A stretch of 63,772 nt of DNA, the filler included, from Stramenopiles sp. TOSAG23-2 (Eukaryota), in the NCBI GenBank assembly GCA_900128395.1. It is 54 parts of 54 records of this genome, joined end to end, with 100 filler letters (N's around TTAATTAATTAA, not from the genome) between each part and the next. Parts side by side here need not be neighbours in the genome. Positions count along the whole stretch, not along the records: positions 61,519 to 62,595 come from LT653806.1; 53 more parts are not named here. One strand, written 5' to 3'. Of this stretch, positions 14,889 through 63,772 are shown piece after piece. Every line of letters begins with the position of its first letter. The stretch's first letter is position 1. The notes below the pieces were generated by a model that saw nothing but the letters and a program-made list of their open reading frames with translations, was not told the origin of the DNA and made no database searches. Made by a program: the position numbers and the translations under genes.

Positions 14889-15901
14889 AAAATTATTTGA
14901 TTTATTATTTTATATAAAAAAATATCAGTATGCCAGTATTATACAAAGCTAGTAAAATATGGACACACGCGAAAATATTAAAAACTTTTTTTTTATGATA
15001 GCGTAAAATTTAAATATACATGTACACCACATTCTGTTTTCCATTTCTGCAGCATTTTCTCTAATTCATCAAATATGATAAAATATAAATTTCTCTAAGC
15101 AGAGTGGACATTAATTGTTGATATGAGCCGGTATACACACACACACACACACACACACTACTTTCACCTTCCATATATATATATATATACACCCTACACC
15201 CAATCGTATTCCAATTTCAAAACGATTTGATTTGGTGGTTGAATTTGCAATGCCATCGCAGCATGTTGTTGCATCTGTTGCAATTCCATTAAAATATCAT
15301 TTAATGATAACGAAACGTGTTCACTTCCCCATCCATGATGGTTCNNNNNNNNNNNNNNNNNNNNNNNNNNNNNNNNNNNNNNNNNNNNTTAATTAATTAA
15401 NNNNNNNNNNNNNNNNNNNNNNNNNNNNNNNNNNNNNNNNNNNNTGTTTTGTATTTCTTGACGCCATCTTGTATATATATATATATATATATCTTGTGTG
15501 TTATCTATATAGTTCAACATTATTCTATTTCATATATATTTCTTAGTTCAAATTCAAAGGAACGACTAGAAATACAACATGGAAGAGAGACACGAAAAGG
15601 CATTCATTAGAAAAAAAGCTTTTTGTTGAATGTGTAAAGAAAGAGTAAAAAATAATTTGTTGTGTTATTGTTTTAATTTCTTTTTAGTGTTTCCAACATT
15701 TTGGTATCACCACGCATGCGCCGTATCTCATATACTTTCACAACTCACCACACCTTGCTCCCCGTTTGCTCCATCTCATTTCCTCACATCTATTTGTATT
15801 TGGAATTTATATTTGATTGTTGAAACGGATGATTAGATAGACGACATCTCTCTATATGCAAACAACTCTTTCATTCTGGACGTCTTCCTCTGATTGTATT
15901 G

Positions 15902-22457: not shown

Positions 22458-22613
22458 NNNNNNNNNNNNNNNNNNNNNNNNNNNNNNNNNNNNNNNNNNN
22501 NTTAATTAATTAANNNNNNNNNNNNNNNNNNNNNNNNNNNNNNNNNNNNNNNNNNNNTATATATATATATTATATATATATATATATATATATCAATGCA
22601 ATTTCCAACTTAC

Positions 22614-23534
22614 AATGTGTGAATTACGTAATGTAATTGTAATACCATGATCATTTCCTAAATGTGTTTCTGCAATATCAACACCTTTTCTGTATGAATG
22701 TAAACTTTGCTCATGGCGTTTTAAAAATTCTTGTTCAACACCAATATTATGATATGCAATTGCTAATACCGCAATACGATCCACTTTTTGTGCAACACCA
22801 TTGTTACCATCTCCACCAGACATTGCACCACTAAATAATTCTTCTTGCAATAAAATCAATGCAGATTGTGCATGTTCCAATGCGCCTATATTTTATTATT
22901 ATTATTATTATTATTATACGTATTTAATTTAGTTAGTTAGCTATATATGATATCGTATTGATAATAGATAGAAAGATAGATAGATAGACCGATCGCTTCC
23001 ACCCCCTTTTCTTCCCCACCTCCTCCACCTCTTATATATCAATAAATATTTCAACTTACCAGCATGTCTACCTAATTGACTTAATACGGCACACATATTT
23101 AAATGTGTATCAGCAGGATTATCCACATGTTCCAAACGTGATTCTATACGCAATGCCTTTTGCAAATAGGACAATGCCGCATGCAATTTACCTTGCCTGC
23201 GATAATAACATGCTAAATTATTATATGTCACAGCACGTCCAGCTTCATCCCGTTCCGTTAAAATTTCAGCTTTTTTCAATAATTCTAATACCATACCAAA
23301 ATCTTCTTGTTGTAAATATGTCATGGCTAATAAATTACACATTTCACCAACTGTTTTACATGCACGCCATACTTCATCGCTATCCGCACCAAAAAAATGC
23401 TGTCGCAACACTAAGCCACGTTCCATGCATTCTAATGCTTCTAAATATTTACCTTGTTCTTGTAATTTGACACACGTATCATCAATACGTTGTAAAGCTA
23501 ATAATTCTGCGTTTTCAGAAGTTTCTTCGTCCAT
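22614..23534 (-). CDS. TPR-repeat protein (exons 23534-23060 and 22885-22614; continues off the contig)
   Basis: AVTYNNLACYYRRQGKLHAALSYLQKAL; LAIAYHNIGVEQEFL. Intron 23059-22886 (GTAAGT..CTAAC..TAG) is in frame; the next donor GTAAGT is at 22613. Confidence 0.85.
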
Positions 23535-29710: not shown

Positions 29711-29875
29711 CGACATCTGATCAGAGGTAGGTGGATGTAGTCGACAATCTGAACAGAGGTAGGTGGATGTAGTCGACAATCTGAACAGAGGTATAGCTAT
29801 GTATATATAGATGGAGTCGAAGACGTATGTTGTGACAATTTGACCAGAGAGGTATAGGTGGAGTCGAAGACGTAT
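29711..29875. repeat. 32-bp minisatellite with degenerate copies
   Basis: CAGAGGTAGGTGGATGTAGTCGACAATCTGAA at 29722 and 29754, partial at 29786, degenerate afterwards. Confidence 0.85.
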
Positions 29876-30275
29876 ATCATAGTATGTTATATTGTTGTAT
29901 CATATCATAAATATATGTGATGTGATAAAAAAAACATGATATTTTGGTAAATAAAAACAAAAATTGTGAGTGTGTATTGGGTGTTGTATATACTCATAGT
30001 GTTGATCGTGGTGTGTTGTAAACTGTCATGGACAGGCAAGTTGCAAAAGAAGAGACTAGAAGTACGTGATATATTAGTAGAGAGAGAGAGATTTGGTCAT
30101 TGTATGATTATTTTGGATGAGATTTGTGAGAATTGTGAAAGAGAGTAAAAATATGCATCATATATATATGATAATTTATAAAGTTTTAAAATATGAAACA
30201 ATACACGTTTAACAATGACAACAAAACCTTCTTTTCTGTACACACACACTCAATAATTTCGTTTTTTTAATCATT

Positions 30276-61392: not shown

Positions 61393-61538
61393 AGTAGTTA
61401 TTGTTGCTATTTACAAAANNNNNNNNNNNNNNNNNNNNNNNNNNNNNNNNNNNNNNNNNNNNTTAATTAATTAANNNNNNNNNNNNNNNNNNNNNNNNNN
61501 NNNNNNNNNNNNNNNNNNGATGATAAAGATCTACGTAC

Positions 61539-61871
61539 GTCCTCCTCTCGCTATAATTATATCATCAATAATAAATGTATGATGTGTATTTATGTTAGTA
61601 TTGTGGAATCGTCCAAATATGTAAACGTACGTGTATGTGTGTGTGTGTGTGTATATATGCATGCCGTATTCAAGCTGCAATAATTATTTCATCCATTGCA
61701 TGATCATTACTTACGTGGTGCACCACGACCTGCTGCTTTCCATTTATTTGTAAATTCATATTGTGTTAGTATTTCAATTTGTATGATTTTATGTAGTATG
61801 TATATAAAGAAATATGTAATTATGCAGAAGTAGATGATTAATTTCGTATGTATAAGATCCTTGGTACCATG

Positions 61872-61902
<31 letters not shown>

Positions 61903-62447
61903 CAAAGCATATGCCTATCCATATTAATAATGTTCCAGTTCTACTAATTAATTTAACGTACGTGCTCGTCCAGGTGCTGTTTATTTATAATAATTTCAAT
62001 CGATAATGGATGTATATATATTTATTTGTGTGTGTTGTGTGTGTGTGTGTGTGTTTTTATCTGTTAGTTGTAAACGCAAAGGTTGTTTCATTTGGTGATA
62101 TATAACTGTAACGTACGCCCTCGACCTCGTCCTCCTCTACCTCCTCTACCTCCTCTTGATGGGGCTATTTAATGAAACGGATGATATGTGTATGTGTATA
62201 TATGTATATGTATATTTCGTTAGATACACGTTTGTTTATATTTGATAGTATTATTTATAATATTACCTACGTCCTCTGCCTCTTCCGCCTCTACCTCTGG
62301 GTGCTAATAATATACATTTATCAAAACAAAAAATCGTGCATTATACGATAGAAAAAAAAAAAGTTAGCTATGTCGCAGTTAATTGGTTGTTATTTTTGTA
62401 ATAGAATTTATTTGTTTACATACGTCCACGACCCCTTCCCCTCGGAG
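61539..62447 (-). CDS. Six phase-1 microexons encoding an RGG/Pro-rich segment
   Basis: Exons 62447-62424, 62303-62271, 62164-62117, 61976-61962, 61732-61715 and 61550-61539, each flanked by AG and GTA(A/C/T/G)GT with an upstream CTAAC; they splice to xPRGRGRG PPRGRGGRGRG PPSRGGRGGRGGRGRG PPGRA PGRGAP PRGG. Confidence 0.85.
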
Positions 62448-62939
62448 CTTTATATTTTATGATATGTGCGCGTATGTGTGTATGTGTGTATATAAATATA
62501 TAGAATCAGTCTGTTAGCTTTTTTATATTATTATATATATGACAGTTTGGGAAATGAACGTAGAAGGCTTGGGCAATTTGGAAATAAAAATTTAANNNNN
62601 NNNNNNNNNNNNNNNNNNNNNNNNNNNNNNNNNNNNNNNTTAATTAATTAANNNNNNNNNNNNNNNNNNNNNNNNNNNNNNNNNNNNNNNNNNNNGAATC
62701 CGTATTTATATAATTAATGTGCATAATGTTAAATAAATATAAAATTAAACACACAAAGCATATATATATTAAATATTACGAGCCGTATAAAAATTAATAA
62801 TGAACATCGTAAAAAAAATATACGAACTCGTAATTTGAAACATGTTACACATACACTGCTGCTGAGATTTATACACACACGCTATGATATTACATTCTTA
62901 TATTAATATTTTTTTATATTTAAATATAGTCTACTCTCG

Positions 62940-63720
62940 TTAAGGTCTTGTTCTTCCACCACGTTTTCTACTTAATTTCTCATCACCAAGATTATTATTC
63001 ATACCATCTACAACATCCGTAGAATTTTTATCTTCTTCCGCATGTATATCTTGAGCTACACGTTCAAAAAGATCATCAAAATCCCATGGAATATCTTGCT
63101 CACCAACATTTTGTTGTGGTGCAAGTGACGAAGTAAGTAAACTTAAATCAATCCACTCGACACCAGCACTAACATGATCACGCAATGACAATTTAATATC
63201 CAAATCAAGCTCGCGAATGCTAGACATTCGACGTGCTTGTGCTTTCGGTGCGTTAGCAATGTCTGCTTCAACTACTTCATCTTCTTCCTCTTCCAAATCT
63301 GGTATGACAGGTATATCGTCACCTTCATCATCGTCAAAAAAGTTATCACGAGCTGCATTTTTTTTTCTTGTCTTTTTTTTTCTTTGCATTACGACTACGT
63401 GAGGAAGATGAAGATGTTTTACCTTCATCACCCCAACCACTGGAAGGTCCATTTTTCGGTGGCGCATCATCTTCCTCATCATCATCCCACCCTTTCGATG
63501 CTTTCTTTGAATCAGATTTTTCAGCAAATTTTGATTCATTTTTTGCCGTTTCCGCAATTTTCGAACTACCACTATTATCATTATTATCTACGTTATCGTT
63601 ATCCTCATCCTCATCACCTCTTCTACGCCTTCTTCTCCTATTCCTACGGCCACCACCATCATTGGAACTTTTCTTATCATTACCACCACTTAACCAATCA
63701 GTATTATTATCACGATCCAT
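62940..63720 (-). CDS. IFT43: Intraflagellar transport protein 43 (frameshift in A-runs at about 63358-63385)
   Basis: DIPVIPDLEE..IANAP..RMSSIRELD..IDLSLLTSSLAPQQNVGEQDIPWDFDDLF; the N-terminal GW motifs are in the adjacent frame. Confidence 0.85.
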
Positions 63721-63772
63721 ATTATTTATTTTTGTGATTGTAATATATATATATATGTATGTATATTATGTA

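Follow-up and report, generated by a model that had tools for sequence, protein, structure and literature searches.

A probable array of six very short, frame-symmetric microexons encoding an RG/RGG-proline peptide in an intron-poor stramenopile genome

The micro-exon genes (MEGs) of Schistosoma carry exons of 3-81 base pairs (bp), many of them 15 bp, which are symmetric between their introns; 35 such genes give rise to at least 87 proteins, and automatic annotation has struggled with them (10.1101/2023.06.21.545858). Here we describe an array of similar layout from Stramenopiles sp. TOSAG23-2 (assembly GCA_900128395.1), located in a window of 63,772 bases, which is the whole stretch of DNA that was analysed. 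The window strings together some 54 unrelated contigs, each 1077-1090 bases long, in order of length and joined through N runs around a TTAATTAATTAA spacer, and "genes" that adjoin each other in it are therefore not genomic neighbours. The contig of interest (LT653806.1; positions 61519-62595, 1077 bases) contains a gene read on the minus strand, where six GC-rich islands each lie between AG and GTAnGT. Judging from their sequence, these islands are very probably real microexons of a larger gene. The array is a module array of symmetric mini-exons, a known kind of structure, and is notable for its intron-poor setting and its extreme exon sizes.

By analogy, the Schistosoma MEGs are the nearest described architecture, and the likeness is one of architecture only. 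Both have runs of very short frame-symmetric exons with lengths that are multiples of three, here 12-48 nucleotides (nt). As far as the same source goes, the MEGs are schistosome-specific, encode secreted proteins, have introns of up to 5 kb and show documented variants, whereas the present array comes from a free-living marine flagellate, has introns of 106-226 nt with yeast-type signals and encodes an arginine-glycine (RG/RGG) peptide with prolines. The locus falls outside the schistosome-specific secreted family, given the marine and aquatic origin of the sequencing runs that contain it, an IFT43 homologue in the window and the RG/RGG character of the peptide. Module genes built by duplication of an exon with its intron include those of the fibrillar collagens, with their 54-bp exons, and titin, with its PEVK exons. 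The array resembles them in giving each exon one low-complexity module and in having introns that share both their phase and their position within the module. It differs in that its exons are far smaller and unequal, its module is Pro-Pro-(RG/RGG)n and its genome is almost free of introns. With the yeast-type introns of intron-poor eukaryotes it has in common a strict 5' signal, a CTAAC-type branch motif and an acceptor at the first downstream AG; it departs from them in having seven introns within 1 kb, a branch-to-AG distance of 30-87 nt and a C at position -1 of every donor.

The coordinates of the array are given in Table 1. All six islands begin and end with C and have lengths that are multiples of 3. 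Variation among the donors is limited to position +4, with G1, T2, A3, G5 and T6 constant in 6/6, and exactly one CTAAC motif is present in each preceding intron. In all these points an earlier sequence-only reading of this DNA agrees with the present analysis, the coordinates that it listed for CTAAC being those of the last base of the motif. It also gave the same lengths for five of the exons. For exon 5 it had proposed 18 nt, but the length becomes 21 nt under the first-AG rule, which is obeyed by the other five introns. The tandem acceptor that it recognized at this exon as CAGCAG exists and in fact comprises three in-frame AGs (AAG-CAG-CAG), with possible exon starts at 61735, 61732 and 61729 and resulting lengths of 21, 18 or 15 nt. 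Tandem acceptors of this kind are known as NAGNAG, and each alternative at exon 5 is predicted to add or drop one residue. The intron range of the earlier reading, 106-229 bp, holds at the lower end, whereas the longest complete intron is 226 nt and reaches 229 only if a later AG of exon 5 is used.

The portion of intron 0 present on the contig contains neither a GTAnGT donor nor a GC-rich island, and its branch A is 66 nt from the AG. Because both contig ends fall within introns, six microexons are a minimum. The longest open stretch on the contig is 64 codons, and alternative genetic codes were rejected, as they produced no sensible long frame. A seventh AG...GTACGT island (61674-61631) was also rejected as an exon, since it is 44 nt long, which is not a multiple of 3, has 41% GC and consists of a CA repeat.

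Table 1. Predicted features of the microexon array (minus strand, in order of transcription) and longer pieces from RNA libraries that match the contig
Feature	Positions	Strand	Length (nt)	Signals, predicted peptide and remarks
Intron 0, 3' part	62448..62595	-		Donor beyond contig end; CTAAC 62517-62513; acceptor AAG ends at 62448
Microexon 1	62424..62447	-	24	Phase 1-1; (P)P-(RG)3; donor GTATGT
Intron 1	62304..62423	-	120	CTAAC at 62367, then T run, then TAG
Microexon 2	62271..62303	-	33	Phase 1-1; (P)P-RG-RGG-RG-RG; donor GTAGGT
Intron 2	62165..62270	-	106	CTAAC at 62223; CA/TA-rich stretch, then TAG
Microexon 3	62117..62164	-	48	Phase 1-1; (P)P-S-(RGG)3-(RG)2, tri-RGG box; donor GTACGT
Intron 3	61977..62116	-	140	CTAAC at 62067, (CA)n run, CAG
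Microexon 4	61962..61976	-	15	Phase 1-1; (P)P-G-R-A; donor GTACGT
Intron 4	61736..61961	-	226 (229 or 232 with later AG)	(TA)n run; TACTAAC 61771-61765 (CTAAC from 61769)
Microexon 5	61715..61735	-	21 by first-AG rule (or 18 or 15)	(P)A-G-R-G-A-P; donor GTAAGT
Intron 5	61551..61714	-	164	(CA)n run, internal GTACGT; TACTAAC 61600-61594 (CTAAC from 61598); acceptor TAG
Microexon 6	61539..61550	-	12	Phase 1-1; (P)R-G-G; donor GTACGT
Intron 6, first part	61519..61538	-	20	Contig stops here, gene runs on
Longer RNA-library pieces	61519-61610; 62067-62181; 61582-61732; 62075-62317			Colinear, unspliced

The occurrence of six islands with splice signals exceeds chance in five independent tests. Across the other 110 contig strands there were 70 islands of the form AG-(6..60 nt)-GTAnGT, and only two of these had a GC content of at least 55%; no other contig strand carried more than one GC-rich island of this form, against six on the target strand. 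CTAAC is present six times on the minus strand of the contig and is absent from its plus strand, while the window contains 71 copies over 108 contig strands (mean 0.66 per strand), so that six copies on one strand have a Poisson probability of about 6e-5 at the window rate. In 6/6 introns no usable AG lies between CTAAC and the predicted acceptor, the only other AGs downstream of the motif being two that directly abut it in two of the introns and are too close for use. These zones between CTAAC and acceptor total 324 nt and contain 2 AG against an expectation of 14, a depletion with P of 8e-5 at the window rate and of 0.048 when the lower AG rate of these introns' 5' parts is taken as the reference. 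The donors, as stated above, differ from one another at position +4 only. The GC content is 65% in the exons and 26% in the rest of the contig.

Two of the three reading frames are open through all six islands, and the third is interrupted by stops. In phase 1 the 50 codons encode 21 Gly, 15 Arg, 10 Pro, 3 Ala and 1 Ser, and the codon at every exon join is Pro (5/5), which bears out the phase 1-1 symmetry and the regenerated Pro codons described from the sequence earlier. The phase-0 frame, also open, would encode an acidic Glu/Val-rich peptide. Both frames were scored by synonymous-codon log-odds against the codon usage of 21 long open reading frames of the window (7153 codons), giving +12.6 bits for the Arg-Gly frame and -44.7 bits for the acidic frame, a separation of 57 bits. 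The low score of the latter arises because it needs GAG, GAC and CAC where the genome uses GAA, GAT and CAT. Thus, the acidic frame was rejected as the coding frame and the Arg-Gly frame is taken as the right one, in agreement with the RG/RGG and Pro content reported before.

A tri-RGG or tri-RG region is defined by at least three RGG or RG repeats in close succession, and the predicted peptide has such repeats: exon 3 alone encodes (RGG)3(RG)2, with seven further RG/RGG repeats contributed by exons 1 and 2. On the other contigs of the window, RG runs were limited to two matches of two repeats each. If an intron were retained, translation would meet a stop 2-9 codons past its donor, and this holds for every donor of the array. 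The locus shows the traits of yeast-like U2-type GT-AG introns, namely GTAnGT in 6/6 donors, CTAAC on the transcribed strand, an AG-free zone before the acceptor and, upon removal of the introns, an open frame with codon bias.

Regions rich in RG/RGG bind RNA and are substrates for arginine methylation. Tails with GRG/RGG runs and short proline stretches are found in Sm B/B', Sm D1/D3, LSm4, Sam68 and the hnRNPs, and the predicted peptide, which is known from this contig fragment alone, resembles them in combining RG/RGG runs with prolines. In contrast to the genes of those proteins, no Sm, KH or RRM domain is encoded on the contig, the rest of the gene lying beyond its ends. We know of no Sm, LSm, Sam68 or hnRNP gene in which the RG region is broken into microexons. 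In one full-text literature search, none of the 12 papers listed out of 1,081 described an RGG region split into microexons, as judged from titles and the opening lines of abstracts.

The existence of the locus as real DNA is established by a DNA sequencing run (X1) that has no differences from the contig. Altogether, 20 runs from 13 studies contain all or part of it, six of them being RNA. Their labels read marine, seawater or aquatic metagenome, or else give one of two organisms in coded form, the second of which is represented by runs X3 and X4 (share 0.41). The genome is AT-rich, with GC values of approximately 24-46% per 2-kb bin of the window, mostly near 30%. Since 12 of the approximately 54 contigs are open end to end, the genome is intron-poor, and other genes in the window are open under the standard code. 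Besides those of the array, one further intron could be validated in the remaining ~57 kb, a count that comes from a stricter screen because a broad intron screen proved too permissive for counting. These figures uphold the contrast, drawn previously, between the array and a genome with few introns.

The validated intron provides a view of the splice signals used by this genome. It lies in a TPR-repeat gene on the minus strand of the contig at 22558-23642, with an ATG at 23534 and a 174-nt intron at 23059-22886 that connects open frames of 478 and 290 nt. This intron has a GTAAGT donor and a TAG acceptor; CTAACTAAC lies roughly 55 nt upstream of the latter, with a low-complexity tract of TAA repeats between the two. 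The upstream frame matches TPR families above the Pfam curated cut-offs, and the downstream frame scores 18.8 bits with TPR_1 and 18.9 bits with TPR_8, below the respective cut-offs of 27.8 and 25.7. Its sequence indicates that the genome splices introns with signals like those of the array (GTAAGT, a branch motif and TAG), and the long simple-sequence gap between branch site and acceptor is accordingly a habit of the organism and not confined to the microexon contig. Near 22612, close to the end of the contig with the TPR-repeat gene, there is another GTAAGT that may serve as a donor.

With regard to the origin of the array, the introns were compared by multiple alignment, which gave a mean column identity of 42% and revealed splice signals and microsatellites as their only common sequence. 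Tandem-repeat finders detected dinucleotide runs and the 9-nt RGG period of exon 3, and no unit of ~150 nt. Outside TA repeats, the target introns had no match in the other ~57 kb of the window. An introner-like mobile origin was rejected on these grounds, as the introns are dissimilar both to each other and to the other contigs, although the ~57 kb compared make up only a small part of the genome. A role as a snoRNA host gene was likewise rejected, the introns having no Rfam match at the gathering score; at E values of up to 1, there were seven matches, all far below threshold, of repeat-like miRNA/RUF models over TG/TA runs. What the units do have in common is the position of the intron inside the first Pro codon, the phase and the boundary bases (..AC or ..GC before GTA.., and C after ..AG). 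Because every intron has the same place in the module, the array probably arose by repeated duplication of one exon-plus-intron unit. As the introns cannot be aligned, the case for duplication draws on common phase, module position and boundary bases. After duplication, the exons would have been held by selection and changed in length by triplet slippage, which, as the 9-nt period inside exon 3 implies, can alter exon length in frame, while the introns would have drifted into unrelated AT-rich and microsatellite sequence.

Several features of the intron sequences were recorded in addition. CA-rich or CA/TA microsatellites occupy four of the six branch-to-acceptor regions (61636-61651, 62027-62053, 62184-62215 and 62466-62497), and the tracts are always CA on the transcribed strand. 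There are three pure CA runs on the contig, at 61636 (16 nt), 62027 (8 nt) and 62036 (18 nt); on other contigs of the window only one CA run of more than 10 nt was found (22 nt at 15136). The donors at 62423, 62270, 62116 and 61961 are spaced by 153, 154 and 155 nt although the intervening exons are 33, 48 and 15 nt long. Over these first four donors intron length offsets exon length, and the later donor spacings are 247 and 176 nt. The spacing of ~154 nt may be a trace of the duplication unit, a nucleosome-scale constraint or a coincidence.

Read data were compared for three RNA runs (X12, X16 and X17) and the DNA run X1, in the form of assembled contigs only and at 90% likeness; assembled contigs lose rare forms. 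No splice joints were found among the contigs of these four runs, in which the longer RNA pieces have a depth of 2-5 and large parts of the target are uncovered in RNA. The runs were chosen by 31-letter genomic words, which introduces a bias towards unspliced material, and spliced mRNA shares almost no such words with the genome because only exons 2 and 3 are long enough to contain them. Given this selection, the possible carry-over of DNA and the use of contigs, the absence of joints neither shows nor excludes splicing. In the oligo-dT RNA runs X16 and X17, the core of exon 3 (62125-62157) is covered to a depth of ~25 by pieces of 31-36 letters with 1-3 differences, and one RNA piece of 110 letters matches 62125-62155 only, its flanks fitting neither the genome nor the predicted spliced form. 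These short pieces were rejected as mRNA of the target gene and are read as parts of different genes that also encode RGG. Such genes, apparently free of introns and very similar to the array in their choice of codons, seem to be expressed in the same communities. Exact-pattern scans of metagenome contigs recovered no loci, either with exon 1 or with the first bases of exon 3 and the acceptor before them. The listed population differences (61568, 62174 and 62240, the latter two within intron 2) are all intronic, but three are too few to serve as evidence. An X1 DNA contig appears to extend ~386 letters beyond the 62595 end and an X12 RNA-library contig 48 letters beyond the 61519 end.

Taken together, we consider it reasonably probable that the contig represents an internal fragment of a nuclear gene with at least six phase 1-1 microexons encoding Pro-Pro-(RG/RGG)n modules, which originated by duplication and are spliced constitutively. 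The gene would be a protein-coding gene of an AT-rich, intron-poor, flagellated marine eukaryote, and each microexon would supply one module of a disordered region, with five complete short introns between the modules and two more cut by the contig ends. Splicing would rely on the yeast-like combination of GTAnGT, CTAAC and the first AG downstream and would probably proceed through intron-by-intron recognition. With pairing across the intron, the tiny size of the exons would not be limiting, and inclusion of all exons would be the default. From what is known of RG/RGG regions, the product may be an RNA-binding tail or linker of the Sm/hnRNP/Sam68-like type with methylatable arginines, its folded part being located off the contig.

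Some observations weigh against this constitutively spliced module array. Its main weakness lies in the RNA data, in which no spliced molecule was seen; the four longer RNA-library pieces (Table 1) are colinear with the genome and cross nine exon-intron boundaries unspliced, at the stated depth. With C at -1 in 6/6 and C or G at +4 in 4/6, the donors fall short of the GTAAGT found in the validated intron. Apart from microsatellites, the introns cannot be aligned with one another. The branch-to-AG distance varies between 30 and 87 nt. Intron-poor lineages typically have a strong branch-point consensus and also tend to a constrained distance from branch point to acceptor (PMC2483917), from which the target introns differ in the latter respect.

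The RNA-library pieces bear on two other explanations. They came from three RNA libraries, two of them oligo-dT primed, and may be pre-mRNA or carried-over DNA. If they are pre-mRNA, splicing of the array could be inefficient, the many weak-donor introns making output steeply dependent on spliceosome capacity and unspliced or partly spliced RNA being destroyed via early stops; should the protein be a splicing factor with an RG tail, a feedback loop would result. The non-consensus -1 and +4 positions and the stop that follows every donor are consistent with this, and intron retention coupled to nonsense-mediated decay is documented in an intron-poor yeast (PMC2911113). However, such stops are expected in any AT-rich retained intron, the libraries may contain DNA and are shallow, and the feedback idea depends on the identity of a protein that lies off the contig. 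We regard inefficient splicing as an unlikely account of the array. The same unspliced pieces would also be expected if the islands were not exons but purine-rich and GC-rich low-complexity sequence, situated in AT-rich non-coding DNA or belonging to a decayed gene and exon-like by chance or through common repeat descent. The triplet and 9-nt periodicity of GGA/AGA repeats could keep lengths at multiples of 3 by slippage alone, two frames are open and the gene context is off the contig. Against this stand the 6/6 islands that combine acceptor and donor signals with a correctly stranded branch motif and a zone free of AG, the scarcity of comparable GC-rich islands on the other 110 contig strands and the 57-bit preference for one frame. 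Moreover, the intervening sequences have diverged wholly while the islands and boundary bases were kept, which is a signature of selection on the islands, and a non-exonic origin is in our judgement very improbable.

The sequence-only reading had gone further and proposed a set of cassettes whose skipping could tune RGG valency, in which the six symmetric microexons would be included or skipped to give isoforms with different numbers of RGG modules. Its statement that any subset of exons remains in frame is arithmetically true, as the exons are phase 1-1 with a Pro at every join, and says nothing about use. Sub-optimal donors, the tandem in-frame acceptors of exon 5 and the protein diversity of the Schistosoma MEGs could all be cited in its favour. 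Yet duplication of one module yields the same symmetry without any selection for skipping, no joint, skipping or other, was seen in the four runs compared, and the introns of the different units have no conserved element in common that might serve in regulation. Short introns with strong branch sites are, in addition, a setting in which intron-poor yeasts show mostly intron retention (PMC2911113). We therefore find no support for the cassette proposal and hold regulated skipping to be distinctly improbable. Only the slenderest chance is given to its combinatorial form, in which skipping together with the triple tandem acceptor would set RGG module number, methylation load and condensate valency, as an independent invention under intron definition. 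A constitutively spliced module array remains the preferred reading.

The other contigs in the window have eukaryotic, nuclear content. Their Pfam matches include importin-type Arm repeats, a papain-family protease with an I29 propeptide, an SMC hinge, PH plus SH3 domains, a polo box and an ion-transport domain, and the window has no Rfam match to rRNA or snRNA. A cathepsin-like open reading frame matched only generic eukaryotic C1 peptidases, and one with a UBC domain had a 98% match on a 1078-base contig, followed by relatives with identities of 49% at most. The contig that adjoins the target in the window (62696-63772, minus strand) encodes a homologue of the flagellar transport protein IFT43 (Pfam E 2.5e-29). 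The N-terminal part of this homologue begins with an ATG at 63720 and does not share the frame of the IFT43 domain. The switch occurs near two A9 runs at ~63350-63380 and probably reflects a wrong homopolymer length in the assembly, not a biological feature. At 29723-29880 on the plus strand, directly after an open frame at a contig start, approximately four degenerate copies of a ~41-nt unit are arranged head to tail, the unit containing GTAGGT or GTATAG, and GTCGA.

In practical terms, the array is a warning that gene callers that look for open reading frames, and those of the prokaryote style, miss a contig of this sort altogether. Provided that the exons are real, a disordered RG/RGG-proline region would have been assembled module by module through duplication of tiny exon-plus-intron units, and this would have taken place in a genome otherwise nearly stripped of introns. 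Such an assembly would bear on the smallest exon that a yeast-type splicing system handles, here 12 nt beside a 164-nt intron, on how low-complexity regions of proteins grow and on why some introns survive in intron-poor lineages.

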